A stretch of DNA of 61,090 bases, the filler included. It is 8 parts of 8 records of this genome, joined end to end, with 100 filler letters (N's around TTAATTAATTAA, not from the genome) between each part and the next. Parts side by side here need not be neighbours in the genome. Positions count along the whole stretch, not along the records: positions 49,362 to 53,591 come from SRR15195285_42; 7 more parts are not named here. The stretch is one strand, 5' to 3'. A model generated the notes under the pieces. The model saw only the letters and a list, made by a program, of their open reading frames with translations, was not told where the DNA came from and searched no databases. Below are positions 11,364-53,691 of the stretch, piece by piece; positions within the stretch are counted from its first letter, which is position 1, and each line of letters starts with the position of its first letter. The position numbers and the translations under genes are program-made.

Positions 11364-11463
11364 NNNNNNNNNNNNNNNNNNNNNNNNNNNNNNNNNNNNN
11401 NNNNNNNTTAATTAATTAANNNNNNNNNNNNNNNNNNNNNNNNNNNNNNNNNNNNNNNNNNNN
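11364..11463. other. Artificial contig spacer
   Basis: N44-TTAATTAATTAA-N44. Confidence 0.99.
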
Positions 11464-18398: not shown

Positions 18399-18498
18399 NN
18401 NNNNNNNNNNNNNNNNNNNNNNNNNNNNNNNNNNNNNNNNNNTTAATTAATTAANNNNNNNNNNNNNNNNNNNNNNNNNNNNNNNNNNNNNNNNNNNN
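18399..18498. other. Artificial contig spacer
   Basis: N44-TTAATTAATTAA-N44. Confidence 0.99.
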
Positions 18499-28700: not shown

Positions 28701-31700
28701 TGACTAATAGCGTCAACACAAAGCTTGCTCTGTTGGCCAGTGACACCAGTTCGCTTCCGCAGCTTGCTTGCTGGCATCCGACTAGGGGCCGCACCATCAT
28801 CCCACTTGACTGTGTACTCTGCACCAGAAGCATGCACCGCAGCTATCGAAGCGTTTTGCCATACTGCAGTCCATCTCCAACCCTCCACGAGGTTGCCTGC
28901 GACGAAAGACCCTGCGGGACTTCCTCGTGTATCCTGAATAGCCGTGCACCGAGCTCCACCCCAGGCGCACACACGGTTGCCGTCGGGCAAAACAGCTGAG
29001 CAGGCAGCTTCCGTAAGAGCGGCCTCACACACGACCTTGTGCCTTGCCACGCACGCCGCAGACATGTTGGTTTCTTGGGGTGTGATCAACTCGGTGTTGC
29101 CCATAAGTAGATCTGCCTGCGAAGCACAGCGCTTTAAAGGGTTGTGGCTGGTCTCGTTGTAGTCATTCACGTCACCAAACTCACAAAAGATTGGCGGCTG
29201 GTCACGCTGTGTCGAGCGACGTTGGCACACCACCCCTTCCGCAGGTTTGAACGTACCAACGTTAGTCGAGACGGCGGGGTAACCCATCCACTCTGCCATC
29301 AAGCCGTCAGAAACTGGGCTTGCAGTTGCTCGACGGATATCGGTGCTGCCCCGCCTCTTGACTCCCACGTTGATGACAGCCTGCTGTGCTGTCAGCGGGA
29401 ATGCCATGACCCGAAGCTCGCAAATCGTGATCGCGCGGCTTCCGGGTTGTGCCACGGTCACATACTTTCCACTGTGCCTGCAAGAAAGGGCATCAGGGAC
29501 AGCAAGGTTGTTGCCGAGCGTTCCGCACAAGACGCCGGTGCCGTAAGCCGCTGATGTGCTGACGTAGACTCGGGCACCGACAAGTTCAGCGTCGCAAAAC
29601 ACGTTGCAGTTTGTCCGGTGATATATCTCGATCGCATCAATGTCGTACACGGCTCCCAGATCGACCTGCCACCACTCGTTGGTACCAGCATTTGTGTGGC
29701 TGCAGCTGTCAGCTAGGAAGTCCGAGCTGTCAATTCCGTCAACGGCCCGGCTAGCAGCCCCACCAAGTGCGGTGGACGATTGCGATGCACTTTTGTCCAG
29801 CGCTACATTGACAAGCGCAGTGCTTCTGATTACCACCGCGTCTCTCAAATCAATCAGCTCTCCGCCGAACCTGCTTTCTGCAGCAACGAGCTGAGTCACC
29901 AGGCTGTCTATCGCCATACCACCAGAATTGGTGTACTCTGCCCAGGCGTCAGATTCTGTGAGTGTCCGGTCCCAGATCTGCACCCTCTGCATCATACCGA
30001 AAAAGTAATCAGAGTAGGCCCCGTTCGCATCAAGGCGTGCACCAATCACCAGCGGCTGCTGACTGTTCATTGCGCCGGTATCCAGACTCTGAAGGCTGTG
30101 AGAACCTGCAATTAGCCCGTCGTGAAATGCTACCATTCCCCCATCTGCCCTGATGGTAAACAGGATGTGGCTCCACCCATGGACGAGACCGTCCTGAGTT
30201 GCCGCGCTAGTGCCAACGAAAAGCGTCGAGGAACTGCAAGCGGCACTGTGCAGCACAGCAAAGCGTTTTTCGTCGCTGACACCACCGCCCCACGAAACCA
30301 GAGATCTCAAAGGCAAGTCTCCTTCAGTACAATGATCTGGTCTGAACCATACTGAGACGGTGCGCATACTGGAGCCAGTGGGAACTCGTGGTCGGACGGC
30401 ACTGATGCTTTCGGAGCCATCAAACATTAACGCGGGCTGAGCAAGACCTGTCGGGACCTCGCAAGTATGTACCGCCAGCCCTGACCACAGGTTCGCATAA
30501 CCCAGCACGGCAAATGCACAGGATGGTACGCACGAACCATCGCACTCAGCCATACCCACTACACCGCAAACTGGGTGGGGTTCGTTGTACCGTGCCCAGC
30601 AGCTCTCACCGAATATTGTCGCAGCCACAGCCTCCGGGCGTCTCGACTGCACTAGGTCAGCGCATTCACCTGCGGTGCCAACTACGCCAATCTGTTCGTC
30701 CAGTCTCGCCCCACCACGGCATGTGAAGCTGAAACCAAATCCACTTTGCGCGGTATGGCCGTTGGACTCAAACTGGATGAGCACGTCTGGCGTACTGCCA
30801 GAGCGAATCTCTGCCTCGTTCAGTTCTCCGTGTAGCACTTCGCCCAGAACGCTTGCTAAATTTGACGGCCCGTCGAACACTCGGACATAATCACCATCTG
30901 CCTGCGTCGATACAGAATTGATGCTAACGACGGGTTGACCAACGGCACAGCTGAGACGCCACTGACAGTCTAACCCATGTCCATAATTGCCACCGTGCGG
31001 TGGAAACTGCACTTCGCCATGATTGACAAGCGCGGCGGTTCCGGTATTGGCAGTCAAACACGGGTGCGGCGAAAGACAAGGTGTATCAACGACAGCATCA
31101 GCACAACACCGAACCCCTAGATTCTGTGAGACGTCGGTCTGACATATGCGACTTCCATCACCATTGCCCTGCATAGACACAGCACCGCCAGTGCATGGAG
31201 TGGATGTCCAGACTTGCTGCAGATCGAAGCAACCGGTTCCTGTCGCTTCATCAGCAACCAGCTCGTCCGCAGTGCAAAGCCGTGCGCCTTGGGCGTGACA
31301 GATAGCAGTAGCGTGCCCAATACCCTCTACAACCGATGAATCGGCACCAAAGCAGGCTGGAGGGTCGATATCGGTCTCGCCATTGTGCGTAAGCCTGCTC
31401 GCGGCGCAGATGGAGTCGCTCCCAAATCCAGGTGGCCATCCTAGAGCATCGCACGACTCCGCTGACGTACACGAACCGCTGTCGGTGGTGGCTGCTCCTG
31501 GCGCAAACGTACACGCATCGACCCGGCGACCGCTTGGAAGATTGTCATCAAGACCCGGACCATAGAGATGGCAGTGACCATCTGCAACTCTGTGATCATA
31601 GGCCAAACAGTCCCCATTAGCGTCACAAGCTGCCTCACAATCTGCTGCTCCGACCGCATTCAAGGCCCGACCATTCACCCGGTCGTCCTCGGTAGTCCCG

Positions 31701-33598: not shown

Positions 33599-34283
33599 CC
33601 CTGCACCAGCCCAACAGCCCTCCACACCCTCCATAGCGTCCAGGGTACGCTTCATCAGGCAGGCCGTCTGGCCTCCACAGCGTCCAGGGTACGCTTCATC
33701 AGTCGGCCTGCACGGCAACAACAGCAGCTGGCAGGATGCCAGCTGCCGCCATCATCATCGCGTCAATAGCATGGGACGCCCGACGGCGGACAGCCACACG
33801 ATCACACTACCGCATCCTACAGCCGACCTCCCGCCCTGGGGACCCAGCCTGCCTTGCCGCCTGCTGCCTGGGTGCGCGGTGAGGAGCACGGTGGCCGACC
33901 CAGGTACTCTTCCTTTACCGTGTTCTTGTCGCGCAGAGTTACCACATATTCGCATATTCGTACTTATTCGTATTAGTTTGCGAGGCATTCATACCATTGA
34001 CGGGTCCATGAATACGAGATTTGGCCGTGTGGCTCATGCAGCTGCATGAGCACGTGGACCCGTGCCGCCAGGGACTCCCGACTGCGACTCGCAAATTTGT
34101 ACGAACATGCCGGAGGGCAGCGGCCGTGTCGTTGGCGCAAATTTGTCGGCGGCGGGATTGGAGACCGGGTCTCCTGGGTTGGTATAATCCATCTTGAAAG
34201 CCGCGAGGCGACCACAAAAGCAGCTGCAGCCGGCCGGCAGGCGGCGCCGGGCTGGCGTGCTGAAACGCACGAAAAACGGCCAG

Positions 34284-34383
34284 NNNNNNNNNNNNNNNNN
34301 NNNNNNNNNNNNNNNNNNNNNNNNNNNTTAATTAATTAANNNNNNNNNNNNNNNNNNNNNNNNNNNNNNNNNNNNNNNNNNNN
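34284..34383. other. Artificial contig spacer
   Basis: N44-TTAATTAATTAA-N44. Confidence 0.99.
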
Positions 34384-35306: not shown

Positions 35307-38300
35307 ATGAGGCGCAAACGTGGCGATGGCGCGGAAACCCGCGATTTTGACATTTTTGAGACGGATAATCCGATGGCGGAAGGGGCAGGGGCAGGCAGCG
35401 ACGAGGATGAGGTGCGCACATACGACATTCCGCCAAGTGGGTCATCATGTTTCTTACCCGTGCGAATTGTTGAGCGCAGCCCCCCGCCGCTCCTGGAGAT
35501 GACACATCCCCGGTCAGTGGAGACCCAGGGGTGTTTGAGGTAGAAGACACAGATACCGGGCGCGGGGACGGGAGAGAACTTTCTCCGCAGGCCATTGGAT
35601 TGGGTGGGACGTGTTTGCTGGTTCTTCCGTGCCCTGTCTTCTTGAGCTACTACACGTTGATGGTCAACTCGGAAGTTTCAAATCTGGTCATCATCATCGC
35701 AGCCTGCATATACGTGTACATGCTGGGTGTAACTCTTCTGGGTATCTTCAGGTGCGTCCTTTCAAGGCGGTGTATCTTCCTGCCCTCTTGTGCTGATCAC
35801 ATGCGCGCGTCGTTTACTAGTGCTTGGGAGTTTCAAAATGGGTCGACAGACTCAATGCAGGTCTTGATGTTCTTGATCACCCTCGCGATTTGTCAACAAG
35901 GCAGCTTCCTCGGCGTGATCACCTCATCTGAGTGTTCGGGAGGAGAAGAAGAAACTTGCCTATACAGCTCGGTTGTAGACGAAACACTGCGCGACTTCGC
36001 TAGCAGTGCACAGGACCAATGCCGAGTGGGAGTTGCCACTGATGGCTATTACGTACCTTGGAGTAGCCTGTGTCCGTGTCTACAGGATCCAAGGCTAGAT
36101 GGCGAAGAGTCCGCTTCATGGGAAGTTGGCGAAGAGTCCGCTTCATGGGCTGGGGCTCCAAGCAACGCGACTTCTTCTGAACCAGACCTGGTGTGCATTG
36201 CAGATGTCCTGAAAAGCGCGAACAACCCACCCAGTGACTTACTTTTGGGGGCTTGGGTGGCGCTCTGGCTGGAAGTTTTAGTCTTCTCCGTCACGTTTGC
36301 AATTTTGTTCACGACTACGGCGCAAGCGCAAAAGAAAGCGGCCGATCAAAGTGGTGGAGCCCAAGTGGCAACGTTGCGCGGCACTTTGGTCGGTGGAACG
36401 GGTCTTCGTTCAGGACACTCCGGGATACCACACGCGCAGAGACACACCAACTATAGCCAACGCTATGTCGTCCTGTCTGTGTCCAACCCAGCTGTACACA
36501 AGCTGTCTCACCGCGCACAGCAGATCAAGACGCCAGAGTCAGAAGACGACCCAAATCCAACATGGAACCACGAGTTCACCGGCCTGGCACTGTACGCTGA
36601 TTCGAACAAACTAGATATTCAGGTATACGATCAGATTGAAGGCGAGCCTGTGCTGATCGGCACTGCGATTACGGCGGATAGTGGTGGAAGCACTGACGGG
36701 ATTTTCATGGACCTGGACGAAGGCAAGCTGACTAGCCCAGAGTACAAAATGAACGGTGACATTGACAAGATGGTCAGTATCCAGCTGTATCACAAAAAGA
36801 CTGAGGATCAGCCAAACCGACCTGCGGGGACGCTTCAGCTGATTCTGAACATGTATCCCGAGAACACAATGTTGCTGAGCACGATAACATCTGTGATCGA
36901 GCAGTCCTTAAAATACGAGGCTGTCATCTTCGCAATGGTGTTGCTTTCAATGCTTGATCTGGCTCTGTGGAGTCCAGCAGCTGCTCTTTCTCCGACGATG
37001 CTGGCCGGACTGCACATTATTGAGTTGTTCATCGTTTTGGAAATGTGTTTTGAACTTGTTATTGAGATCGAAGCTGCGCGCCGGCGAGGAGAGACACAGC
37101 TATGGAGGAAGCCTGTCTTCATATTTGGGGTCTACAATCTTGCTGCAAACATGGTCTGGCTCGTCCTTGATAAAACTCAGGGAAACCTGTGGGTGCAAAA
37201 GTTCGTAGCTGTTGGTAGAGTCACCCGACTGGCAAGGGGTATAGAGCGTTTTCGCATTCTTCCCGACGTAGATGTGATCGAAGATGCGCTGGGAGCTGCT
37301 TCACAACTGTTTGCAATGGTGCTTGTCCTCATGTTTATGTTGACGTTCATGTTCGCAATTATTGGAGTCAGCAGCTTTGGTGGGGCATTACAGTTCGAAT
37401 GTCTCCTAGACGGAGTTCAAGAGTGTGACCAAGCTCAGAATGAGGTCGCTAGTCGACTTGGTGTAGAGTGCCCTCTACGCTGCCCAATGACTCTTGCATG
37501 TGCCGTTGATGGATACACTTGGCCGTGGGAAGAGGCGATGGGACTGTTCGAGGCACCCGACAAGCGGTGCGCGCCTGTTCGAGAGCCAATCCCCGTTGGC
37601 TATGACTCGTTCGGGATCCGAGATTTCGACAACGTTTGGCGCGCAACGGTCACCATTCTGGTTCAAGCAACAGGAGATGGAGGCATGCACACGATACCGT
37701 TGGCACTAAGCAATGCTGGCGCACGGTTCACAGGTAGAGGGTGGTTAGTGTCATTCATCATCTCAGTTCTTCTGAACCTGGTATGCCTCAACTTGTTTTT
37801 ATCCGTAGTCTGCTCTGCGTACAGCCGTTCTGCGGCGAAAGCCACAATGGCTCGTGCTGAAGAAAAAGCAGCAAAGGAAGCAACTATAAAGGAAAGCATA
37901 GCTACCGAGACGGCCGAGGAACGCAAGACCCGCATTGCCATAGAGGAGGAGGTGCGTGAGAAAGGAAAACCGGTCGCTCAGAGATCGGAAGAAAAAGATT
38001 GGGTGGCAGACGGAAGTGCATGGATGCCTCCACCCATTCGAATGACTTTGAAGAATATTGTACTTTCTGATTTATTCGAGACCGTGGCCTCCCTGATAAT
38101 CTTGGCAAACACAGTGACGATGTTAATGGCCCACGATGGGATGAGCGAGCAGATGGAATCAATATTGCAGGGGTTTGAAATGTTCTTCTTGTTTTGCTAC
38201 GTTGTGGAATCCATAATGATTTTTGTGGCACAGGGGTCGCAGCTCTTCTTTGAGTCGTCAGAAAACAGATTTGACCTGTTTGTCATTCTTACTTCAATCA

Positions 38301-41300
38301 TGGGGACCGTTGCAGAGTTTCAGCCGGAGCTAGTGGCCAAATTATTTGGAGGTGTCGATCTCGGGTCCGTGCAGTCGTTCCGTGCTGTGCGACTGCTGCG
38401 GGCCCTCCAGCTAGTGCGACTGGTTGGCGGACAAGGAGCATTAATTACCATCATGGGATGTATCTTCAAAGCCTGGCGACCGATTGTTCTTCATCTAGTG
38501 TTCTGCAGCTTTTTCATGGCGGTGTTTGCGATCACTGGAATGCATCTATTCGGAGGGGCACTTCGGGAGTGCGAGCAATCTCAATGCACGCTCGATGACT
38601 ACGAACGGGCACTTCCAGAGAATTTTGAAAGTTTTGGAGTTGGTATGCTGACTGTGTTTGAGTTAACTGTTGGATTGGATTGGTCACGATCTATGTACTG
38701 GTATACTGAACATGCGTCTCAGTCCATCGGCTATCCACAATGGATGGTCCAAGTTTTCTTCTTGATAATGGTGATTTGGATGAACTGCATTCTTTTCTCG
38801 ATGTTCTCAGCAATCTTAATCCACAACTTTGGACACCCAGAAGATAACCGATTCAATATGCAGAAACGAATTTATGGACGCCAGGAAAGACGGACAGCAC
38901 GGATGCTAAAACGACTTCGGGAAGCATTGGATCTCCGAAGTGCTGCGCACGAGGAAGAAAAGCTAGCAGAACACATCAGCCGTGCTGACATGGCATCGCT
39001 ACTTCAACACCACCACAAAAACAATGACGATGACGATATAAAGAACAGGTCACTGTATTGCTTCTCACTGAATAGCATTGTTCGCGACTGGTGTGCACAG
39101 AAGCTGGAGCAGCCCTCGTATCGGAGGAGGGTGATGCAAATGATCGTATTCTCGTGCATTGCGTTGGCTGTGGAGGGACGCGGTGAGCAAGGCATGGGTG
39201 CTGTTGCAGCTTCTGTGACATTCGTCAAAGACTTTGTGGGCTTCAGCTACTTCTCCGTCATCAACGTGCTGGTGTTCCTATTTTTCGTCGAAGAAGCCAT
39301 ACTGAAAATCATTACACACGGATTCATCTTAACATCTGGACCAACAAAGCCATACCTGCAGAAGAGGATGGATCAGCTGGACTTTTTCATCATCGTAGTG
39401 TGCTTCCTTTCCTTTCTTCCCTTCGATACATTTGCTGGACCATGGGTTAGAGCTCTGCGGGTCACTGCAGTAGCAAGACTAATTGGTCCACTACTAGACA
39501 AGACAGACGACCCACAGATATCGCTCGTGTTGATGTCATTCGGGCGCTCAATTCAGGATATTATGTTCGCGATGTTGCCGGTGGTAGTGATAGGACTCAT
39601 GTTTGCTATCGTTGGCGTCGCATGGTTTACTGGTACTCTCTCATACTGTGCAGCTCTACAAGATCCGTTGGCACCACTTCCGTCAGTGGATGCAGAGACA
39701 TGTGCTGCATACCATGAGCTGGCATTGAACACAAGTGCAGGCGCTATTTCCGATTCTGCCCCTGGATCCTGGAGCGCAACTGATTCTGAGTCAGAATCGG
39801 GATCTTGGGTGGATGATATCGTGCGCGCCCCTCTCGGCTTCAGTTGGGAGACGCCTGTGCTAACATTCGACGATTCTATTACTGGAATGGCATCACTCCT
39901 AGTCGCTGCTATAGACGGAAGTCATGAGTTCATGCTGAAAATGGCCGCGAGCTCTACGTCCTCATACTCGTACTGGGTCGTATTTCACCTCGTTTTCACT
40001 TGCTTCTTCGTCAATCTCTTTCTGTGCGTTCCTGTCGCTTCGTTTGCTGCAAACTCTGGCAGATCATTGATGACACTTGGCGAGCTTCAGAGGAGTGCTT
40101 CGGCACTGATGATTCAGAACTTCGAGCCAGGCAAAGTAGTTGGTGCTAACGTTGAGGAATTACGGCCACGGCGCGACTCTAAATGCTTGTGTTGCCAAAA
40201 AGCCCCGTCGTGGTGGTTTTCTCTGCGACAACTTGGGTTCAATATTGGGATCAACGATCGTTTGGAGTATATCTTTCAATTTATAACTCTAGCGAATGCC
40301 TTTGTACTGGCAACTGACACGTATCCAATCAACCAGTTCGAATTGCCTCATCGCGAGCTAGTCACCATTTTGAACATGCTGTTTCTGGTCATCGGTGCAG
40401 CCGAAGTTACACTGAAGCTCTTTGGATTCGGTCCAGCCGATATATTTGCTGATAAGTGGCTTGCGACAGACTTGCTGCTTGTGTACCTAGCAATAATTAT
40501 GGCCTTCGCGGGTGGGCGTAGTGGCATCGAGGTATTGCGGTGTATTCGCGTTGCTCGTATCTATGGAGTGGCAGTGCGTTTGCCAGGAATCGTCGCGCTG
40601 ATTGACATACTCATGGCAAGCATCAAAGCTAGCCTAGCTGTGATTGTTCTTGTGGCGCTCACAGTGTACATTTACAGCATTATGGGGATGTTCATGTTTG
40701 GTGGCTTGCCAACCAATGATAAGCTTCGTGCACTAGGCTTCACCGAGGAATCACCTGGATCTGGCTTTGACACCTTGCGCGAAACGGACGAGTTTTTTGC
40801 GACTGTGTGCCCTTCATGCAGCACCATAAGCCCATACACTAACTTTAACAACTTTGTCGCTTCCTCACAGTCACTGATACAAATGACATTTGGTCAGGGC
40901 ATCCGGGGATTTATCGAGGACCTGCAGTTCTTGGGATCGGGCTGGATGGGTACATACGCATATTTCGCGTCATTTTACATTGTTACAGTGTGGGTTTTCA
41001 TGAACATACTGGTCGCCACTGTGCTACGGAACTTCGACGCCGCCAATACATCTATGTCTGTTGGCAAGGAACCGATTGCCCCCTTTGATCTGGACGGGTT
41101 TGCGCACACCTGGGCTTCTTTATCCATAGGTGTTCAGCGCGCAAAGGCGCTGGAGCGCACTGGTGGCCTGCTACTGGGACATCTGCGTGGAGTCCTTGAA
41201 GAGGAGGAAGAAGGTCTTTCTGAAGGGATAGTTTCTGCCTGCTTTGAGGACGGCGCAGACGGTCAGACGGGTACCCTTTCTGTGACCGTCCTCAGTGTTA

Positions 41301-44300
41301 GTGGCCTCCGCGATCCTAAATCGACTCCATACTGCGCTGTCACGCTGCACAACAGGAACGTCGAGGGTCGCGATGCACAATGCACACGTACAGGAGCCAA
41401 CAAAAACGGGACTGCGAGCTTCCAGCCGAGGCAACCACCCCATGACCATCTACTCGGCGGTTTAGTGGATGGTCTTGGAGGCGTAGCGAAGGGTATTGGT
41501 GGCGTAGCAACGGGAGGCATTACAGGTGGTCTTGGCAATGTAGCGGGAGGTCTTGAAAGTCTTGGTGGGGGGCTCCTTGGGGCGATAGGCAACACGTTGC
41601 CTTTCAGCAGTGCGATTAAGCAGGACAACCACTTTCAATTCCATACGACAACATATACCACACACCTGACGTTTCAGTTGCACGAAGCATTCCAATTCGA
41701 AGATACGCTGCTCGGTGCATACAGCATTCCAATGAATAGTGCCGCTGGCCTCTCGCTGTTGCGGATGAGTTCAGCGGCAAGCAAGGAGGTTCAGTTGGAG
41801 CTGCTTATCAACGATGTTGGTAAAGTTGAAGCAGCTCTGGATGGCGAGGCAGACCGGTGGAAGCTATATAATACAGATATTACTGCCGTCGGTGACGTGG
41901 CTTCTGATGGAGAGGAAGGAGCTGACAGTGATTCTGGTGATGACGAGATCGTTGACCGTGAGGGCGCTGACGACGCCACCGACGATGACGACGAAGGTGT
42001 CGCCGTTTCTGGCAAGAAAAAAGCCAAGAAAACAGCGAAGCAGAAGGGGAAGTCGAAAAGGAATCTCAAAAACTTAGAACAGGAGCAAACATACGATCTA
42101 GAAGCAGCCTTGGCTGAAGCTGCCCCCACTGCAGACGCCATTCGTGAAGCCACGAAGGATGCTGCTGTCCATAGTGAAAAACTCGAGCAAGCACAAAAGG
42201 AAGCAGCAGCCCGACCGAACGACGCTCCCATCCCACGGCTCAGCAAGAAGCCCAAACTCGAATTTCCACCACGTGGCGAGTACCCATCTGATGATGAGGA
42301 CGAGCAGGACGACGAGGACGCTAATATCCCCAACCCATACGAAGGCTGGCAGCCCACTGGCATCAAACTTAAGGTGACCATTGAGTTCCTTCCTCTGGTG
42401 AACAACGTTCCGAAGACTCAGTGGCTGGGTGATCACGCCATTGCCTACCCAAGTATGCAAGCGACATGTGGAACAGAAGGCTGGCTGGAACTATCTGAGG
42501 CTGGCAACCCTTTCAAACGACGATACTGCTTTCTGCAGGCTTTCCCAGAGCCATGCTTCAAATTCTACCGAGATTGCAAAAGCGTAGCGGAGCTTGAACA
42601 GCGAAGCAAGCGCACCAAGCTGCGCGTGCAGAAAATTCTGGGTCAAAACATCATGAGCCTCAATGAGGGCCATGACTCAAAAACCTATGCTCGACGAAAC
42701 CAGTTCCATCACAACTTTCAGATGGAAGCCGAACAGGTTGTGGATGGTGGTGGTCTTGTCGAGCAACGTGTGGGTTTCTTGACCGGAGAGATCGTTGCAG
42801 CAGAGAACCTCACCGATTCACAGGCAGAGACTTGCACACTCTGCAAACGCCTATACTTTGAGGACCTCGACGACATCCATGATGACGATGATGACGAAGA
42901 GGACGATGGTGATGACGAAGAGGACGATGATGATGACGAGAACGCTGAGGATGCTGAAGAGGAAAACCGCATTGGGGCGAGCGGAATACCTCCTGAACTC
43001 ATCGTCGCGCAGTCATTTACAGTTGAGGACCGCCCTGACCAAACAAATATCAGACCCACACGCTATATGGCCGCAAGCCGTACGACCATTCGGCTGTCTC
43101 CCGATCCAAGAGCCACCAAAGTCGGCACGGTGGCGAAAGGGACTGTCGTCACTGTTGTTGCCCATAAGATTTTCGACGGTGTGAAGTTCTTGAGAACGAG
43201 TGATGGATGGATCGCCGGAAACAGTGAGCACCGGAATAACGTCCTCATGATTGCCGAAGACTCACAGGCGCACTACTTTCGAATTTTGAAAGAAGTCACA
43301 ATCGGCAAGGAGCTGTCGATAGCTGAGAATATTGATGCTGAGCCTGTGGGAACCTTGCCCAGAGGATGCGTAGTGGAGGTCATTTCGAGCAAGAAACACT
43401 TGTACCGTCCTGGAACAACCGCTGCCGATGCGCGGGAGGAGCGAGTGGCTCGCTCGGACGAATGTAAGTCGCTGAGTCTCCACGAGCTGAGGGAGCGTGC
43501 ACAGCAGATGGAGATTGACGATGATGATATTGCGGAGGCCCTCGACGATGAGAACCCCAAAGCAGAGCTGATAGAACTGATCCTCGATGCAGGTGATGTC
43601 AAAGGCGATGAGGTCGCAGTCATCAGGCATAAGGTAAAATGCGACTTAAGAGGTGTGCTGTACGGCGGTCCCAGTGGAAATTGTGATGGTTGGATCAGCG
43701 AATCTGATATTAACGGTAACATTACAACCGACACCTACTGCGTTGTTGAGACCGTGCCAGATATACCTGATAACACACCAAACACCCTGAGAGTGGCCAG
43801 ACGGGCTACTCAGAAGGCCCGATCACCTGTCATCGTGAACGACACGAATCCTGTTTGGCAAACCAAATTCGCTTTCAACGTGTACAACTCATGCTATACG
43901 ATCAGAGTATCTGTACGCGAGGAAGGCACGGACGAGGAGGTTGGGTCGGCGACGCTCATGCTTGGAATGGAAGCCGGCAAACGGTCTACAGATGGCATTC
44001 CTGGACCTATGCTGCAGACTCCTAGCGCAAAGAATGTCGAGCTGAGCATGGCAGACCTAACCGAACATCGTTTTCCCATTTCATCGTCCAAGGCCAATCA
44101 AGGCACGGTTGCCATCCGGCTGGGCTACGAGCAGCTGGTATCACATGACGACATATTCGAGAGTTACCAAGCTGCTCTTGCAGATGACAAGAGTGCAACT
44201 CTTGTGTCGTGCATGATGGTGCCCGATACGCGGCTGGTGAGGTTCCGGTTTCAGGCGCCAAATCCGACGATTCAGCGTGCATGGCTAGCAGCAATGAAGT

Positions 44301-45448
44301 GGGTCGCAAAGGGCTGCCCACGTGACGCTAAGCCGCGTGACGTCAAACTTCCTATCAATCTTCTCGCCACCTCTGACAGCAAGCGTGCAGAGCGGGATCT
44401 CAGCCTGGTCGACCTGCCATTTTCAAGAGTTGGACAACTACTACACGGGCTATATCTCCGCCGCGTAATGGGTCGGCGCAAGCCAACACTTCGACACGTG
44501 GCCTACACCGTTTTCCAGCTTGAAACACATTGTTTTGGTCCAGATAATCAAGACACTGCTCGAAAGCGAGGCATTCGAGGGGACGCAGATAAAGAAGGAG
44601 TATATCTGAGTGACCTGCGTGGTCTACGTTTCAATGCCACGTTGGAACGACTTATAATGACATACTATGGCAAGCGTCGCTGCTTGTCTTACCGCGACCA
44701 GGTGGAGGAATACGAGGTCGAAGCGCGCAGTATTGCATCTCAGATCATCCGTACCATGGTGTCACGTTGGGTGTTCAAGACGTGCGCTCGACTGGGCAAG
44801 ACTGTGGATGGACAGCCGTGGCCTTATCATCCATGTTGGCGCAACAACCCCGAGCTGTACGCTATCGCAGCAGACGCTGCCTGTGCTCAGCGAATGTACA
44901 CTCTCCGCAAACTGTGGTCCGAAGTGCAGCGCCAGTCTAAGCCAGAGTCTGGACTAGAGGAGAATGATCAGGTATCTGAGGCACTAGCGAGTGACAATGA
45001 TCCTATACCAGGGACTGGTGCTGACCCCTCGTTAGTTGAAAGTCTTCCTGTGGAGAACGGGGATGTGCCAGTAGACGACCTGGTTCACGAGACCCCAGAG
45101 ACGAGGAGGGAGCGTATCGGTGCTGCGTTTGCGCGCATCCGGGAGAGACATGATCTCACGGACGGCCCCGAAGACGAGCTTGAGGCTAGGCAGCTATTTG
45201 ATGTGCTGCCTCTGCTTAATGGTGTTGTGCTCACTCCTGACGACTTCAAGCTCATCGTCAACGCACTGGGGTGGTCGATGGACACAATTGTGTCGGTGGA
45301 CGAGCTCAGTAGAGCTTTCGAGACACTTGAAGTCCCTGCAGTTGACTTACTGCTTCACGACGACGATGAGAATCCTGACCTGGATAACTTTGACAACTTT
45401 GGTCTCGACCCACAGGAGGCGCTCCGAGCACTCGTGAACAAGCTGTAG
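35307..45448 (+). CDS. Four-domain voltage-gated cation channel alpha subunit (Nav/Cav superfamily), 3357 aa, with extra N-terminal TM helices and C2, PH, SH3b-like and EF-hand-like domains; exons 35307..35411 and 35480..45448
   Basis: Four 6TM repeats with S4 segments (GRVTRLARGIERFR, FRAVRLLRALQLVR, VRALRVTAVAR, LRCIRVARI), pore helices (DFDNVW, NFESF, TFDDS, NFNNF) and S6 ends (LNLFLSVV, MNILVATVLRNF). Phase-0 intron 35412..35479 (GTGCGC..GCAG) links an upstream ATG exon in frame. Confidence 0.93.
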
Positions 45449-46136: not shown

Positions 46137-48802
46137 TCATATCGGCGGAAGTTCGAGCTGCTGTTTGCCAGCTGCACCCACCACCTTGTATTTGAGCGGG
46201 CTGTAATTTTGCAACGCTTCGTCACCACCGTTGTCATCACCCCTCACAGCTACTTTCTGCTGCCCAGAGTGTCCAATCTTTCGCCCCCTTCTCCCTCGAG
46301 TTTTGCTCTCTTTTGCCAAACCAGACCGGTTGCTGCCACAAAAACGAATGGGCAGCCCGAGCACGCTGGGATCTTTGTCGACTGGTCGCACTGGCACAAG
46401 AGACCGAGTTGAGGTGCGAGAACCTCCCATGGCCGCACCGAAGCCGGTACCATCTTCCAGCTTCTTCCGATTCGTGCGTGTAGTCTGCTCTCGGACTAAG
46501 CGCTGCTTCTCCAGATATTTGGAATCCTCCATCGTTCGTTGCACCCGCCGAGTGATGTTCTCGAACGCAAGCATTCGGCGAGGTTGGTTACTTGACATGA
46601 CATTGTCAAATTGCACGCCGCCGCCTGTCGCGATAGTGGTAGCCAAAGCAGCTGCCGCAGAATCTCTTGCTTCAGTTTGCACTAAAGTAGTAGCACCCTT
46701 GCCGGTTGGCTTCGTCGTTCGACGGATCCGGTCCCTGTATCTGTTCTCACGCGAGCCAATGTTGCGTCTAACACGAACGTCAGGCTCTGCCAGCTGTTCC
46801 GATGCCATCAGCGATGTGAAGTATCCTTGCAGCTGATTATCCGCACGTTGCCACCGTCGTTTCGCTCGGGGCCGAGGCAGGGCATCGACTGAGCTCCCAA
46901 GGACTCCACCTCCACCCGTGGTCGTTTGGGAGTTTCCGACTGTGCTGATGTCTACGCTAATGTTTGCTGCTCCTGCTGTACTTGCTGACGAGAGGTTCAG
47001 CGTAGACATGCTGCTACCACCATCGACCTCTCCACATTCGCTGGTGTGCCCAGGCAGCGCACGACGCCTGTTGACGTCAAGATACTGTTTCGTAACAGTC
47101 GGCGGGGGCTTGGCTGCCTCTGCTTCGACCCGCGCCAGCTGCCGCTTAAACTCTGCTTCCGCCTCTTCTTCATCTGAACTCTCAACCAGCCATTCAAATC
47201 CGTCCTTCATCGTCTCAGACATTGACCCGAAGCCACTGTCGTCCACGTCTGGTTGAGACGACGACGGCTGATGCTGGTTGTGGCGGTGTGCAGTGATCGT
47301 ATCCCCATCGTTGGTGCCAGAGTCCCTAGCCTCGGGAGCGAGATACCGGGCCGGGTTACCTGGATCAATCGGAACGCAGCTGCATGCAATGCAAGTGACA
47401 GCGAAAGGTGAGTTCACAGACGCTGCGGAAACACGCTAGTGGACAAAAGGCAGGAGTGCACGGATAGTCGTGATAGTTCTTACCATATTGGGCATTCGGG
47501 TATCCGCTCGAGACTATCTTTGAGGCATGTGCTGCAAAAAATGTGACCCTTTACGCATTGGCATGCTGGCGGCCGCAGCATCTCCTGACATATCCCACAC
47601 AGCTGTTGGGTCGGTTGTTGGCGACCAAGTAGCTGGCGTGTCATTTCATCGCGCTTGTTAGTCTCGGCAGCTGAGAAATTTCGATTTTCTCGTTGCTCTT
47701 TCTGTAGCTCACGTCGCCTTCGCTTTAGGCAATGCCAGGCCTCGCGTACCGCTACTCGACCACTGGCCGCAGCACCGAGCATCTGAGAGCCTGCTATAGG
47801 CAGGCTGCGGAAACTCTCTCGGTGCGTGGCAAGAATTCGATCAATTTTGACCAGGTCAGTCTCTGCTAGTGCCTGGGCCAGCAGCCGCACCTCGCCCTGG
47901 ACCAAGCGCTCGGCTACCGATACAACTCGGTTCTCATGTGCCGCTTGACCAGCGCCGTCGTCCTCTTCGTCTGATTCGCCCGCAGCATCGTCTTTTTCGT
48001 TACCCGCTTCATCTTCCACACTAGACCCCATACTGAGTTGCTGCGGAGCGCGCGCTGCGCTGAGATCGCCCAGGAACTTAGCCATTGCAGTCTGCGAGTG
48101 CCGCCGCGCGAGCACAGCTGCCGCACTCGTCTCTATTTCCAAACCCGCACCAAGAATTTTCTCGATATACAGGGTGTCTCCGATGCGGATTGCCTTAGCC
48201 ACCAGATTAGCGACCGCTTCCAGCCCATACCGCACCCCCACAACATCGCCTGCGTCCGCTGCGTTGTGGACCATGGCCAACAGTGCATCACGGGCCTCCC
48301 TGTCAAGCATGCACTCGAGATCTTCGCTTTTGCCGCGAGTTGCGTGCTCCGTGCGAAGCGCGGCGGACACCAGGGCTGCCGCAATTGTGGCTTTGCCATG
48401 TCTAGCGGCCAGCACGAACGGAGTGCAGCCACGTACATCTCGAGCGTTCAGCTCTGCACCGCGCTCAAGCAGCAGCGAGACCACGCCGACATTTCCTATC
48501 TGTGCAGCAAGGTGCAGCGCAGTCTGCCCGCTGGCATCCGTCTCCGCCAGCGATACCGGCCGCCAGGCAGGCAGGCGTGAGGACTCTTGCGCGCCGGCCG
48601 AGGATACGGCCACCACGCCCGCCTCTGCTTGCCTCTCCTCGAATCTTCCCTTTGAGCTACTGCCACCTAGAGAGCTGACGCGATCAGGCGATGACGCGCC
48701 GTACACATGCTGCCCGTGGCCATCGACACCTCGCACCGAGGGCAGCGCCTTGGTGAGCTCAGTCACATCGCCGAACCGCACAGCCCTAATCAGCACCGAC
48801 AT
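46137..48802 (-). CDS. Ankyrin-repeat and C3HC4 RING-finger protein (putative E3 ligase); exons 48802..47484 and 47379..46137
   Basis: GQTALHLAAQIGNVGVVSLLLERGAELNARDVRGCTPFVLAA. The RING CGIC..C..GHIFCSTC..CPI is completed to CPIC by the phase-2 intron 47380..47483 (GTAAGA..TGCAG). The exact 3' end is uncertain. Confidence 0.85.
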
Positions 48803-49163
48803 ACCACAGCACGCACCTCAGGCTCCAGCAAGCTTCGACACTTTCTACCGTATGTGTCTCTTACGGGCAGGCAGCAGCAGCCAGCAAACAAGCAAACAAG
48901 CAAACCAGCAAGCACACTCCAGCCCATACATCACCACCCAACCCAACAAGGTCCGCAACGAAGAAGACAGCACACAGGGTCTCACCTCCACAGCCGCGTG
49001 CCATGGATCGGGTCGACGCTCTCGCTCTCGGCCATGGGGACCCGCAAGCGAGTCACTCACACGCGACCCAGCAAACCAGGCGCAACTAACCGCAACTCTC
49101 CGTCTCCCATGCTCGGGCGAGCCGGCTGCTCAAGGGCGGTGTGGCGCCATAGACGCGGGGCGG

Positions 49164-49261
49164 CTCTATGCCAGCTCTATGCCAGCGGTATGACAGCTCT
49201 ATGCCAGCGGTATGACAGCGCTATGCCAGCTCTATGCCAGCGCTATGCCAGCGCTATGCCA
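49164..49261. repeat. 11-bp minisatellite, about 9 units, at the contig end
   Basis: ctctatgccag, cggtatgacag and cgctatgccag variants in tandem. Confidence 0.9.
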
Positions 49262-49361
49262 NNNNNNNNNNNNNNNNNNNNNNNNNNNNNNNNNNNNNNN
49301 NNNNNTTAATTAATTAANNNNNNNNNNNNNNNNNNNNNNNNNNNNNNNNNNNNNNNNNNNN
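49262..49361. other. Artificial contig spacer
   Basis: N44-TTAATTAATTAA-N44. Confidence 0.99.
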
Positions 49362-52300
49362 CACGCGTGTCCATGTCGACCGCCATCAAGCCTATGGTGG
49401 TTACTCATCAGGCCATCCCCGCCGCAGTCGAACGTCACGTCAATCAACCCACCATCTGGAGACCCGCCGCTCTCAAACATGAAAGGGCCTACCACAGCAG
49501 TAGATGCATGAATGTTATCGCTGCCAAAACGGCTCGTCGGGACAGAAAGCCATTTTCCATTGCATATGTCATAGATATCGGCGTTCTGAAGAGTGTCCGA
49601 GGTCACAACACCGTCAGCGTTCACCTGGAAGCCACCAGAGAGGTAGATCTTGCTGCCGATACCCACTGCACGAGCATATGCACGGCAGGTGGGCATCGAG
49701 ATGCTCGTCCAGCTGTCTGAAAGCGAATCATAGACGTTGACATCACATCCCCACTGAAATACACCGTACTGATTGTTTTGAACCGATGCCGCAGCAGTGC
49801 CGCATACATCAGCATCGGGCCCAAGCTTCGGGGCATCTTCGTACTGTCCGAGTGATCCAGTGTCAATATCGTACACATCAACGCTGTCGTATGATCCCCA
49901 CATGATCTTGTTGCCCACTCGGATGGCTGGTGTGTGGCAGCGAGCGATACTAGACGCAGCTGAGCCAATCTCAGTGGCCGTGTTGGATTCGATGTTGTAC
50001 TCTGTGAGCACGTCAGAGCGAGCACCGCTTGCGAGATCGCCTCCCCAGACGTATGCCCGACCATCGGTGCTGACAGGAAGCGGGTTGTTGAACGGAAACG
50101 ATGCAGTACGGCCAAGCGATCCTGAGGACCAGGTGCTGGTCGCCGTGTCATATATGTCAATCATCGATTCGGGATGAAGCAACTCCCAGTTACCATTGAC
50201 CTGCTTGAGCTGAAAGTCAGTCGTCAGTGCGCTTCCACCGAAGAAAATCGCTTGAGTTCCGTAAGCTGCCGCAGCAATACCACGACGGTCGACCGGAGAG
50301 TGTAGAATTGAACGCTCGAAAATCTGCTCGAGGGGATAATTAGACGCTGGTACTTGCTGCATCCAACCGTCCTGCTGCAAAAGCCGTGTCGGTTCGAACT
50401 CAATGGGATCATAGTTTGGGCACGGGAAAGCGTTCTCACACTGCTGCCCATAATACCCGCCAGGGCATTCGCAGAACGCAAGGTTGACACCATCGATGCA
50501 AGTCCCACCATTAGAGCAAGGATTAGATTCGCAGTTGTCTGTGTCATGACAGACCTGTTCGCTGAGCGCGGCAAGCAGTGCATCGAGAAGGTTGTCTGAG
50601 TTGCGGGACAGCTGGACAACAGAACCACGGCCCAGCTCGGTGACAAGATCTTGGTAGATCGGCATGGCCTCCGTGGTCACAAGGAAGAGCGGGATTATAC
50701 CGCTGCGCTCGAGTGCAGATTTTACCATTTCAGCGTCAGGGTAGTCAGTGACAGCACAATCAGCCTCAGAAGTCCCAGTCGACTGATCAACCAGTCCATG
50801 AGGTGGGTGCCATGGTGCCATCGTGGCACCGTCGCCCTTCTTGTGGTATGGTGAGTCGGTAGTGATCACGATTACACGCATGCTGCTAGACTCAAAACCA
50901 GCATCTGCAGCACGAGCGGCCACGCGATACAACGCATCAAGCTGGGCGTCAGGGCCGTCACCGCCGCCGTAATGAGTCAAGCTTCTTATCGACGCTTCCA
51001 CCTCTGACAGGTCTGGCGAGAGGCCTGAGATTTCGCGATAGCAGAACGCGTTAGAAGATCCGAAGCGCCAAGGCCACACAGGCTTGTCAGAGAAACCACC
51101 AACACCCATGCGCAGCTTATCGACTGCTCCAGCGACGGTAGATATTGTGGTTTTGACCAGCTCCTTCATCATCCAGATATCATCATAGAATGATTCTGTG
51201 AGGTCTTGAAGCAAGAACAGGTCGAGATCAATCGGGCACGCGCCGCCCGGAGTGAGCTGTCCACCTTCGCAACAGGCAGACGGAAGGCTGACCTGCGGAC
51301 GAGTCGAGGGCATCACATCGTACTCCACAGGACAACCAATCGAGTCGGCGCTAGGATCAACGCGCTCCGCGGCGGTCTTGAATGTGTTGATCAGGAAGTA
51401 GTCGTTCGCGTTGTGCAGATCAATGCCTGTGCTCAGAGTGGAGTCGCTCCACATGTCGATGTCGGCCGAGACTAGAAAGTTGGGAGCGTTTGGGCCACCA
51501 GCGTCCATGAGAGCACCATAGGCCTCTAGCTCGTCGTCATACTGCAACAGCACTGTATCCATTACGCCATTCACAGTGATGCCGACGAGCTGTGCTGAGT
51601 CGCCGCCACCGAGCTTCACCTTAGCAAAGCTTTGCCCGCCACATGCCATCGGATTTGACGCCTCGCGAAGATCGAGTTTGGCATCGATTTTCCGGCACGA
51701 TGCTGCAGCACGATGCTGCAGCACGTCGCGGTGGACGACGCGGCAGGCCGCATCACGATCAACAGAATCGCACCCACCGATAAGAAAGTGGCCTGGCTGA
51801 AAAGTCCACGCGCGGAGGGTAGCCACCTCGGTGGCATTGAGCGATTCAGAGCCACCAGAAAACCAAATATCGCACTCAGCCTGTGCCAGATAATAGTCGC
51901 CCACCTCAGGCAGGCTGTTGAAATCGAAGGCGTAATATCCGACCGCCCCTTGTCTGCACCCCACAACAATCACAACAGCCGCGGCCTTGTACTGTTAGAC
52001 CTGTAGTGTTGAGCTCTTGTGTCCGCTAATGCGTACAACTAATGTGCACAGCTCTGTTGCGCGGCAGCTTGCATCAGTGGCCATGCCAAGGAGAGAGGGA
52101 GTCAGATAGCGCCGGCGCACCGTCCGAAGATCTGTTGGTTGGAGAGTTTAGCCCGTGCGCGTGAAAACATTGGACCATTGAAGTCTCCGTAATCGCCTTG
52201 CTTTGAACAGATCTGAAATCGAGGGGGGACGTAGTTCGAGGCGCAGGTGGTAGACCTAGCAGCAACACGGCCTGAGACAGCGTCGATAGCGAGCTTGAAG

Positions 52301-53473
52301 GCAGATAGGACGAAGATATCGGCGGAGCCTCCGTTTTCAAGAGATGGACTCTCTGGGTTGATGCCACTGCCGCCGGTCACTGAGACAGTAGAGAAGAGAT
52401 CGACATCACCGCTGAAAACAGACACACGGTGGTGCGTTAGTAGGCATGTGGTTTGCTCGGCGCAGTTTTGCTGTACACAGCTCAGCTGAGTGTGCCAGCC
52501 AGGGGTGGCAACATGTTGTCCTGCTAGGCAGAACAAAGCGACTACTCATCGAAACACGTACATGAGGAGGATCTTCGGATGTGTGAGACTGTCGACCACA
52601 GCTGCGGGTGACCCGTCCGAGTATCGTGCTAGCGCCTCGAATGAGCTGCCGTTGAGATTGAACGTCGCAGCCCCGGTAAGGGTGCCGCCCACCGCCACAT
52701 CAGAGGTACCACCACAGCTGTTGTGCCACGATGGGAATGTCACAACAATCACCGATCTGTGCCTCAGTGCTGCCACTAGTATGAGCGAAGCTAAATGACA
52801 AGCAGAAGCAGCGCAAAGCTCGACAAGCTGGCTTGGCAAACAAGCGAGCCACTGCACTGTGGCGGGTGTGAGGCTGGCACTCTAGCGAAGCCGAGCGCAA
52901 CGCAGCAAAGACCAGCGCAGCATAGCACAGCACAGCGCAGCACAGACCAGCGCAGCATAGCCGAGCGCACCTGAGCGGATTGCCATTCGGAATCGCCGAT
53001 AGCAGCACGTTCTTGGACTCTAGCGGCGTGACCGGGGCTTCCGCCGGCATGCCCACCGCTCGGCAGACCTCGCCGCGAGCGTCCCCGTTGCAGGCCGCAA
53101 TCACGAACCGCGTGTCGGAGGCATTCACCCAACGGCCTAGTGCGAGCTTCTCATCGGTGCTCCAGCTCGTATCGTCACCAGAGAACCAGATGTCGCAGCC
53201 GCCGCCCTCGAGCGCAGCGGGTGTGATCCCGGTCAGCGGCGTCGCGAAGTGCAGCACGTCGGGTGCAGCAGAGCCGGTCGGCCCGAAGAATTCCAGGTTC
53301 CCGAGCTTCGACCTGAGGTTTTCCATCGGCCCGTAGCCGATCGTCCCTGGCGCCGCTGAGTTCCAGCTGTAAGCTTTGCCTGTGCAGACCGTGTACACGG
53401 CTGCTCGCGCTGAACCCGTGGTGAAGAGCAGCAGCGTCGCGAGGGACGCCGCTGCCAGCCCGCGCGACCGCAT
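49362..53473 (-). CDS. Secreted protein: signal peptide, two tandem ~240-aa alpha/beta modules, integrin-beta I-like VWA domain, Ca-binding EGF, kelch propeller; runs off the contig. Exons 53473..52971, 52717..52562, 52411..52121, 51953..49362
   Basis: Signal [24 protein letters not shown]. Three phase-2 GT-AG introns (52718..52970, 52412..52561, 51954..52120) give one frame in which the two CDIWFSG repeats align. Beta-I motifs [75 protein letters not shown]. Kelch GG..YD..W repeats. Confidence 0.85.
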
Positions 53474-53554
53474 ACCCGGCGTGGCACAGGCAGCCTCGGA
53501 CTTGACTCGAACAGGTGTGTGTTGAAAAACACAGCCCTTAGACCTGTCTCAGCC

Positions 53555-53591
53555 CTCTCTCTCTGTGTGTCTCTCTCTCTCTCTCTCTCTC
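53555..53591. repeat. (CT)n/(GT)n microsatellite at the contig end
   Basis: Read directly from the sequence. Confidence 0.9.
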
Positions 53592-53691
53592 NNNNNNNNN
53601 NNNNNNNNNNNNNNNNNNNNNNNNNNNNNNNNNNNTTAATTAATTAANNNNNNNNNNNNNNNNNNNNNNNNNNNNNNNNNNNNNNNNNNNN
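53592..53691. other. Artificial contig spacer
   Basis: N44-TTAATTAATTAA-N44. Confidence 0.99.

Follow-up and report, generated by a model that had tools for sequence, protein, structure and literature searches.

An Integrin-Beta-Type Domain, an EGF and a Kelch Propeller Encoded in One Chain by a Probable Marine Protist Gene

Introduction

Integrin heads are regarded as having been invented, in two-chain form, by the lineage that gave rise to animals, fungi and amoebae, and beta-I-like domains from other groups have been passed over as solitary domains. The Sib proteins of Dictyostelium and a beta-A-like protein of Trichodesmium carry an integrin-beta-like VWA domain outside animals and are not classed as integrins in the portions of the literature consulted. 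Likewise, in the consulted parts of integrin-origin papers, proteins with a beta-I domain only are not counted as ITGB (10.1101/2020.04.29.069435). A search of the literature, papers' supplements apart, found no report that pairs Integrin_beta with kelch, and none dealing with integrin-like proteins from Picozoa.

Here, we describe a gene encoding a beta-I domain, one EGF and a kelch propeller in a single chain. We lean towards the view that its product is a large mosaic protein, secreted or located at the surface, in which the beta-I domain and the propeller form a head, and which would be adhesin- or particle-receptor-like rather than an integrin subunit.

Gene Structure and Origin

The analyzed window is a stretch of 61,090 nucleotides in which several contigs are joined by linkers of 44N + TTAATTAATTAA + 44N. 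The gene is located on the minus strand of a 4.2-kb contig (window 49362-53591; Table 1). Since the window strings several contigs together, the feature stops at the contig end (49362) and not at the end of the gene. The original prediction placed the feature at 49420..51235; the domains there are real, but the gene is longer, starting at 53473, about 2.2 kb upstream of the feature as first described, and its propeller runs off the contig end.

A single open frame of 871 aa (P0001, 51973..49362) encodes the domains under study. The spliced model comprises four exons and three GT-AG introns in consistent phase, and gives 1180 aa without a stop. Residues 6-893 of this model were colinear with residues 1-896 of P0003, a 2081-aa protein from a Picozoa single-cell genome in EukProt (36.6% identity, E 5e-171). 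The region of exon 1 was a tblastn match of P0003 residues 46-158, and exon 2 was required if the spliced model was to align colinearly with both P0003 and N-module 2. RNA-library contigs from two studies mapped to the coding part, and none of the contigs from three RNA libraries showed a splice joint. One such contig (record 13) enters predicted intron 3 by 114 bases and another (record 15) lies almost entirely inside predicted intron 1, indicating that the library contained DNA or unspliced RNA, or that introns were retained.

The only extensions found were P0156 and a 4479-base contig of run X1, in which the same DNA is present in one piece. P0156, a public protein of 1191 aa, is 99.8% identical to the exon 4 product over 870 aa and extends about 320 residues past the contig end. 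The final ~95 residues of P0156 resemble read-through into an intron. Contig extension had been proposed as a way to a TM or GPI anchor; the extension was obtained, but P0156 displayed no TM-like segment, nor did the 1180-aa model or P0003, all of them C-terminally incomplete (Kyte-Doolittle, 19-residue window, >1.6). No membrane anchor was found in the 1180-aa model or P0156, the gene sequence stopping short of its 3' end. At least half of the sampled words of the stretch were present in 13 DNA runs, and the 19 matching rows span 15 studies. We consider it somewhat probable, jointly with the whole explanation favored here, that the gene is eukaryotic and intron-bearing and comes from a marine heterotrophic protist to which, among named relatives, Picozoa single-cell genomes stand closest.

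Table 1. Exons, domains and motifs of the gene, in window positions
Feature	Position	Strand	Description
Exon 1	52971..53473	-	ATG 53473; signal-peptide-like N-terminus and first half of N-module 1; donor GT after 52971
Signal peptide-like	about 53405-53473	-	aa 1-23; assigned by eye from a basic n-region, a hydrophobic core and small residues ahead of the cut
Exon 2	52562..52717	-	middle of N-module 1; AG acceptor and GT donor on its flanks
Exon 3	52121..52411	-	end of N-module 1; P0003 207-306 matches 52419..52123 (tblastn)
Exon 4	49362..51953	-	open to contig end: N-module 2, beta-I, EGF, kelch propeller (cut)
N-module 2	51254..51952	-	~233 aa, fold not assigned; conserved CDIWFSG motif; repeat of N-module 1
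Beta-I domain	50549..51232	-	aa 248-475; Pfam PF00362
MIDAS DLTES	51191..51205	-	D257-L-T259-E-S261
ADMIDAS-like D264 D265	51179-51184	-	after MIDAS motif
EGF, Notch-like, single	50432..50545	-	aa 477-514
Kelch propeller	49364..50296	-	aa about 560-870; six blades modelled, seventh begins, cut by contig end

Domain Architecture

The VWA domain is of the beta-I type and distinct from generic VWA domains. Its match to Integrin_beta (PF00362) covers aa 250-466 and profile positions 6-237 of 248 and scores 87.3 bits (cutoff 24.8; E 1.7e-24). Its best phmmer match in the PDB was integrin beta-7 (E 1.5e-18). The AF2 model of the domain had pLDDT mostly above 90; Foldseek gave E 4e-19 to integrin beta-3 chains, the rows listed being all integrin beta chains. 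In the VIA comparison the best fit was Z 30.5 (rmsd 1.8, 226 residues), and the I-like domains of integrin beta and Pactolus reached Z 27-30.5, in contrast to 15-16.6 for other VWA domains.

Acidic and hydroxyl residues of the metal sites are present as D257, T259 and S261 (MIDAS DxSxS), D264 and D265 (ADMIDAS DD), D296 and D339-G-P341-D342 (SyMBS-like D and DxPE) and D373 (the TD Asp), accompanied by the motifs GPDAQ (aa 340-344), HKKGDG (aa 377-382) and DYP (aa 410-412). Among 96 related domains, the conservation of the MIDAS and ADMIDAS-like positions is D in 94, S/T in 95, S in 91, D in 79 and D in 89. The first Ser of the MIDAS is Thr in the query, as in 25 of the 96. The Glu shared by MIDAS and SyMBS is replaced by Asp, found in only two related domains, while 87 retain Glu, and in the SyMBS-like loop Gly takes the place of Asn. 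Where beta-7 has the Lys of GDGKLGG, the aligned residue of the query is Ala; we take this position to be that of the beta-3 Arg plugging the alpha propeller.

The EGF matched PF00008 (28.2 bits, cutoff 21.5, aa 481-510) and the Notch1 EGF in the PDB (E 4e-13). Three kelch models scored above cutoff within aa 560-815: Kelch_1 (26.6 vs 20.1), Kelch_6 (27.4 vs 25.3) and Kelch_2 (22.5 vs 21.3). AF2 placed 24 strands in six groups of four at model residues 328-573, with pLDDT about 60-87. Against propellers, among them the KBTBD12 and KLHL7 kelch domains, this model scored VIA Z 15-17; WD40 and other propellers reach the same Z, so the kelch label rests on sequence. The propeller is probably seven-bladed, as the seventh blade can be read by eye in P0156.

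These results bear out the original prediction, which had read this stretch as a beta-I type VWA domain with one EGF and a kelch propeller: Pfam, PDB phmmer, Foldseek and VIA agree. It had located the motifs correctly, including the Asp in place of Glu, and the comparison it proposed between Integrin_beta and generic VWA came out on the side of Integrin_beta.

Upstream of beta-I are two copies of a cysteine-bearing module, which are 28% identical across 200 aa (E 5e-13); relatives of the module were detected in P0017, P0117, P0047 and P0003. N-module 2 had no Pfam match, the profile of the module gave only chance matches to PDB sequences (E 0.8), and AF2 on a 9-row alignment gave no usable fold (pLDDT 30). 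Leads from the ESM Atlas, set aside as weak, were unnamed Bacteroidota clusters (0.94, 0.93), DUF4960 (0.91) and TCAF_N (0.89). The domain past the propeller in P0156 is also kept in P0003 (E 7e-33) and had no Pfam match (P0156 905-1100). Its ESM Atlas leads, to VWA and Integrin_beta clusters, were all below 0.9 and were not adopted; a second, degenerate VWA domain would be a guess only.

Related Proteins

In word-index searches, P0002 and P0003 were the sole members of the family recovered, and scans of metagenome contigs found no relatives. The architecture is retained in P0003 at 37-44% identity; large insertions occur inside and after its propeller, and P0003 may be a paralogue rather than an orthologue. 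The beta-I domain itself is closest to that of P0003, followed by bacterial RTX-repeat proteins. Its pairwise scores were 120-150 bits (35-43% identity) to bacterial and protist beta-I-like domains, and at most 69.6 bits to animal integrins.

RTX repeats occur in 52 of 86 beta-I relatives, and Calx-beta, cadherin-like, PPC, He_PIG and Dicty_CTDC modules are also found; no RTX (HemolysinCabind) repeats were detected by the Pfam scan in P0001 or P0156. The original prediction saw the novelty in the combination of domains, and we agree, but a propeller in the same chain as beta-I also exists among the bacterial relatives, as FG-GAP in four of the 86 and as SBBP in one.

Predicted Head and Alternative Explanations

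Complex prediction of the beta-I domain with the propeller gave ipSAE values of 0.61, 0.67 and 0.67, against 0.00 for the best of three controls, which include none known as a propeller. Partner pLDDT was at least 77, and contacts agreed between runs by at least 61%. The docking mark was passed by 51 of 78 solved complexes and by 2 of 108 mismatched pairs; in eukaryotes, it was passed by 39 of 65 solved pairs without a like older complex and by 2 of 126 unrelated pairs. The predicted contacts are loops beside the MIDAS face. The modelling supports, in silico, a propeller packed onto the beta-I domain in an integrin-head-like arrangement. The docking score may instead represent the model's memory of solved integrin alpha/beta heads. 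In P0003, 6 of 21 contact residues in beta-I and 10 of 25 in kelch were identical, compared with 46% and 49% for the whole domains; in this one distant homologue the contacts are not better conserved than the domains as a whole, which limits the support for docking.

The original prediction of a single-chain analogue of an integrin head, with AlphaFold suggested for the interface, is partly supported in that contact between the domains is predicted, but the possible model memory, the Ala at the plug position and the ordinary conservation of the contacts limit this support.

The explanation we favor has the parts follow one another as signal peptide, two N-modules, beta-I with a full set of metal-site residues, EGF, kelch propeller and, past the contig end, one or more additional conserved domains. 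A divalent cation would sit at the MIDAS of the beta-I domain and bind an acidic group of a ligand, as the conserved residues suggest. The propeller, if it packs as modelled, would lie against the loops beside the metal site so that the two domains form one head, and the remainder of the chain may supply further binding modules.

Alternatively, the protein could be a mosaic adhesin in which beta-I and kelch are independent beads on a string, spaced by the EGF and without a stable head. This appears unlikely, though it has several observations in its favor. Relatives of the beta-I domain are shuffled with the many unrelated modules listed above, the AF2 single-chain model had a pTM of 0.47 with pLDDT below 50 for the EGF and linker, and both the ordinary conservation of the contacts and the large insertions of P0003 fit independent modules. 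However, the docking mark was passed by a wide margin (0.67 vs 0.00), and the order of beta-I, EGF and kelch is retained in the sole distant homologue.

It is very improbable that the protein is a true integrin beta subunit, or a direct descendant of one, paired with a separate alpha subunit, despite solved-structure matches headed by integrin beta chains and the retained metal-site residues. As the original prediction had noted, other integrin parts are missing: PSI, I-EGF stalk, beta-tail and other integrin models had no match in P0001 at E <= 1 (Pfam scan), and PSI, I-EGF stalk and beta-tail models had none in P0156 at E <= 0.1. The beta-I domain is flanked by N-module 2 before it and directly by the Notch-like EGF after it; for lack of room, and because the structural alignments cover beta-I only, the hybrid domain is taken to be absent, the scan having no hybrid model of its own. 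With no PSI, hybrid, I-EGF stalk or beta-tail part found, nor a membrane segment in the C-terminally incomplete sequences, the protein is not an integrin beta subunit. The higher scores of bacterial and protist domains, a loop aligned to the specificity-determining loop that is 14 residues shorter than that of beta-7, the lack of TM-like segments in the three incomplete sequences and the usage of the integrin-origin papers cited above also argue against a subunit.

A bacterial contaminant or a mis-joined assembly mimicking a fusion, for which the short 4.2-kb contig of a fragmented assembly and the mostly bacterial nearest beta-I relatives beyond the family might speak, is hardly credible, given one uninterrupted 871-codon frame for beta-I, EGF and kelch, the recovery of the same DNA as one contig in another run and across many runs and studies, GT-AG introns, a eukaryote-type EGF, homologues from Picozoa single-cell genomes and the absence of RTX repeats.

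Beyond the favored mosaic protein with a beta-I/propeller head, a bolder proposal, quite unlikely on present evidence, is that the beta-I domain docks within its own chain on a seven-bladed kelch propeller, making the protein an integrin-head counterpart in one chain, from a red-algal relative outside Amorphea. Its metal site and propeller face would make a composite ligand pocket with which the cell catches colloids or small particles. Such a head would have arisen independently of alpha/beta integrins, or from an old beta-I-plus-propeller partnership like that of the bacterial FG-GAP/beta-I proteins.

Comparison with Known Systems

Taken together, the query gene, the homologue from Picozoa and the FG-GAP/beta-I proteins of bacteria suggest that beta-I acting with a propeller may be an older and wider arrangement, one put together on more than one occasion. 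If the docking is real, the protein would offer a small single-chain system for studying a MIDAS site with a propeller ligand pocket, and a first candidate surface receptor in uncultured marine picoeukaryotes, the feeding of which is hardly understood.

The query resembles the integrin beta head in its beta-I fold (Z about 30, rmsd 1.6-1.9, 219-226 residues), in having the MIDAS, ADMIDAS-like and SyMBS-like acidic residues, HxxGDG and DYP, and in a propeller predicted to lie on the loops next to the metal site. The integrin head consists of two chains with an FG-GAP propeller, whereas the query has one chain with a kelch propeller. Integrin beta also has hybrid, PSI, I-EGF stalk and beta-tail parts, which the query lacks; no TM or NPxY was seen in its cut sequence.

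Like the Dictyostelium Sib proteins and the Trichodesmium beta-A-like protein, the query is non-animal and has an integrin-beta-like VWA domain. It scored 23.8 bits with the Sib family model vWA_SIBA-E (PF24909), below the cutoff of 27. Sib proteins have a TM segment and a talin-binding tail, while the query gene is cut before its C-terminus.

P0003 has the two N-modules, beta-I, EGF, propeller and post-propeller domain, all in order, and differs by having a Laminin_G_3 inside the propeller or behind it, plus a PA14 and the beginning of another propeller. The bacterial RTX proteins, such as P0007 (Methylobacterium sp.), have a beta-I-like domain with the metal-site residues of the query; they carry HemolysinCabind repeats and bacterial Ig, cadherin or Calx-beta domains and neither EGF nor kelch. 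FG-GAP repeats are carried by four of these RTX-repeat beta-I proteins, P0066, P0100, P0093 and P0124. The bacterial FG-GAP is N-terminal to beta-I, while the propeller of the query is C-terminal to it.

Gene structure and genomic context

The minus-strand frame carrying the finding (P0001, the query, whose residue numbers are used unless another protein is named) was open over 871 codons. Pfam Integrin_beta, one EGF and kelch models were all matched within it, in agreement with the domain set originally predicted, and the motifs of that prediction lay where it had placed them. The gene is larger than first reported. An upstream ATG on the same strand starts an N-terminus that, judged by eye, resembles a signal peptide, and four exons joined across three GT-AG introns of matching phase gave a stop-free frame of 1180 codons (the spliced model). 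Residues 1-896 of P0003, a distant homologue from a Picozoa single-cell genome, aligned in a single piece with aa 6-893 of this model (36.6% identity, E 5e-171). RNA-library contigs from two studies lay on the coding part. None of those on the gene contained a splice joint, one entered predicted intron 3 and another sat in predicted intron 1; support for the introns therefore comes from splice signals and the alignment with the homologue, and not from RNA. Predicted intron 1 also held a short GC-rich low-complexity stretch with CTGCG/CTGTG-type repeats, where summed contig depth was 212 and 112 in RNA and DNA runs against about 2-15 elsewhere in the gene. This stretch is probably a repeat common to many other loci or organisms.

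The first ~300 mature residues were a repeat, at 28% identity over 200 aa (E 5e-13), of the ~240 residues before the beta-I domain; thus the protein begins with two copies of one module. For this module Pfam gave no match, the AF2 model reached only pLDDT 30, a profile search against PDB sequences returned chance-level matches and the Atlas yielded weak leads only.

The 61-kb window is composed of eight contigs and is not one molecule, so genes on opposite sides of a linker are uninformative about each other. Eukaryote-type genes, including those for EF-hand proteins, were found on the other contigs. One open frame, of 4650 codons, codes for Ephrin_rec_like repeats, REJ, Laminin_G_3, F5/8 type C and a fibrinogen-C-like piece, and its product is a second giant mosaic protein of extracellular type from this organism. 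Four Ion_trans repeats together with a C2 domain were found in a 3305-codon open frame, which encodes a voltage-gated-type four-domain cation channel fused to C2. A further frame combines ankyrin repeats with a Sina-type RING finger at its C-terminus; this finger is truncated by the frame end, and the gene probably continues into another exon.

Coordinates of the gene and of other features in the window
Feature	Position	Strand	Remark
Contig bearing the finding	49362-53591		4230 bases; gene on minus strand
Open frame (P0001)	51973-49362	-	871 codons
Upstream ATG	53473	-	
Exon 1	53473-52971	-	
Intron 1 (predicted)	52970-52718	-	253 nt
GC-rich repeat stretch	52913-52945		in predicted intron 1
Exon 2	52717-52562	-	
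Intron 2 (predicted)	52561-52412	-	150 nt
Exon 3	52411-52121	-	
Intron 3 (predicted)	52120-51954	-	167 nt
Exon 4	51953-49362	-	extends to contig end
Giant mosaic frame	19769-33721	-	
Channel/C2 frame	35531-45448	+	
Ankyrin/RING frame	47480-48802	-	
Imperfect 12-base tandem repeat (GGCATAGCGCTG-like)	~49160-49261		up to the end of the adjoining contig
Seven linkers (44 N + TTAATTAATTAA + 44 N)	3688-3787, 8043-8142, 11364-11463, 18399-18498, 34284-34383, 49262-49361, 53592-53691		

Beta-I domain and metal sites

Pfam Integrin_beta covered aa 250-466, almost the entire profile (E 1.7e-24, 87.3 bits), and the best PDB sequence matches were integrin beta-7, beta-2, beta-3, beta-1 and beta-6 (E 1.5e-18 and weaker). 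AF2, run on aa 240-870 with a 43-row alignment, gave a model whose VWA part had pLDDT mostly >90, and Foldseek gave integrin beta chains only among the matches listed (best E 4e-19). In the VIA-align comparison with 48,161 representative chains, I-like domains of integrin beta and Pactolus scored Z 27-30.5 (rmsd 1.6-1.9 over 205-226 residues), while all other VWA domains scored 15-16.6. This wide gap indicates a domain of the beta-I type and not a generic VWA, as had been proposed.

Metal-site columns were tabulated over 96 domain instances drawn from the best 150 library matches. They were almost invariant (D in 94; S in 70 or T in 25; S in 91; D in 79; D in 89), with further columns holding D in 96, D in 95, P in 84, E in 87 and D in 93. 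The query retained every column, except that Thr259 stands in place of the first Ser and Asp342 in place of Glu, the latter replacement occurring in 2 of the 96 only. The loop aligned to the specificity-determining loop (SDL) of integrin beta-7 was 14 residues shorter in the query.

EGF, propeller and 3' end

The single Pfam EGF (aa 481-510, 28.2 bits) resembled Notch EGF modules in PDB sequence matches, and three kelch models exceeded their cutoffs within aa 560-815. The AF2 model showed six blades of moderate quality (pLDDT about 60-87), with EGF and linker poor and pTM 0.47. The propeller is truncated by the contig end. A public protein of 1191 residues, P0156, from a 4479-base contig present also in run X1, was 99.8% identical over 870 shared residues and extended ~320 residues more. 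By eye, its continuation completes a seventh blade, followed by a further domain common to P0003 (P0156 862-1096 against P0003 1473-1704, E 7e-33), for which Pfam gave no match and other leads were weak and VWA-like only. No TM-like stretch was found in the spliced model, P0156 or P0003, all three being incomplete, and two metagenome scans for further extension or relatives found nothing more.

Predicted docking of beta-I and propeller

Three predict_complex runs took beta-I (aa 240-476) and propeller (P0156 516-912) as separate chains. The runs scored (ipSAE) 0.61, 0.67 and 0.67, against 0.00 for the best of 3 controls, which include no known propeller; pLDDT of the partners was 77 or higher, and contact agreement between runs was at least 61%. 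Among solved complexes, 51 of 78 reached the score mark, as did 2 of 108 mismatched pairs; for eukaryotes, the figures were 39 of 65 for solved pairs without a like older complex and 2 of 126 for unrelated pairs. The prediction supports, but does not show, binding. Confident beta-I contacts (W300, aa 312-317, R350 to G359, aa 400-408) fell within the short loop equivalent to the SDL, the helix that follows DxPD and the long loop that leads up to DYP. Each of these adjoined the metal site, and no MIDAS residue was itself among the contacts. Propeller contacts were scattered from 564 to 890 and were read as five of seven blades, therefore as face-on docking.

The docking arrangement may have been learnt by the model from solved integrin heads. 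Conservation in P0003 was lower for contact residues, identical at 6 of 21 (beta-I) and 10 of 25 (kelch) positions, than for the whole domains, with identities of 46% and 49%. At the position aligned to Lys of the beta-7 motif GDGKLGG, equivalent to that of the beta-3 Arg plugging into the alpha propeller, the query and 42 of the 96 relatives, including all four with FG-GAP repeats, have Ala. Thus any docking would not be of the integrin Arg-in-cage kind. The proposed single-chain analogue of an integrin head has in-silico support from the predicted docking, within the limits set by these points.

Relatives and comparison with integrins

A HMMER search of 1.84 billion representatives returned 5899 matches at E <= 0.001, and only a handful had more than one domain in common with the query: P0002 and its cluster, which are the same gene and include a EukProt member identical to the window's frame; P0003 and P0004, from Picozoa single-cell genomes (EukProt); and fragments P0006, P0017, P0018, P0047 and P0117. 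Word-index searches added no family member. The next-best relatives, including Methylobacterium, a Myxococcales MAG and two gregarines, matched beta-I alone (35-43% identity, 120-150 bits), whereas the best animal integrin in PDB reached 69.6 bits, about half of their scores. Pfam scans of 86 of these relatives (in sets at 1e-5, 1e-8 and 1e-8) found RTX repeats in 52, as well as Calx-beta, cadherin-like, PPC, He_PIG and Dicty_CTDC modules, and a kelch match in none of the 86. These matches and modules place the query domain in a broad non-animal beta-I-like group, and the kelch combination is limited to a small Picozoa-linked family. P0011 from the gregarine Blabericola migrator (EukProt, 1894 aa) had five tandem beta-I-like domains, in all of which ND/NS-Y replaced GDG after His.

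Identity as an integrin beta subunit was rejected. PSI, EGF stalk and beta-tail had no Pfam match in the query or P0156, which bears out the reported absence of PSI and I-EGF parts, and the Notch-like EGF directly follows beta-I. A preprint on integrin origins gives the canonical integrin beta parts as PSI, hybrid, beta-I, EGF stalk, beta-tail, TM and NPxY, and sets aside the beta-I-only proteins of Trichodesmium and Didymoeca and the Dictyostelium Sib proteins as not integrins (10.1101/2020.04.29.069435). A beta-A-like protein of Trichodesmium that lacks EGF and TM has also been described (PMC3192720).

The query gene encodes a secreted-type N-terminus, a beta-I fold with its metal-site residues, an EGF and a propeller, and this whole order is kept in the distant homologue. 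The MIDAS would bind an acidic ligand group in a cation-dependent manner, with the propeller packed beside it. The protein would serve in adhesion or particle binding, to which the lectin-like Laminin_G_3 and PA14 modules of the homologue may contribute, and a particle receptor is an attractive putative role.

Four of the 86 relatives (P0066, P0100, P0093 and P0124), bacterial-type RTX proteins, carried in one chain both Integrin_beta and FG-GAP repeats, which are of the type that forms the propeller of integrin alpha, and one (P0059) combined SBBP propeller repeats with Integrin_beta. These five may be closer single-chain counterparts of an integrin head than the query. In our literature search, neither this architecture nor integrin-like proteins of Picozoa were the subject of any paper. 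Mosaic proteins with beta-I-like domains are known outside animals; we rate the kelch partner domain as new, with a head-like packing predicted.
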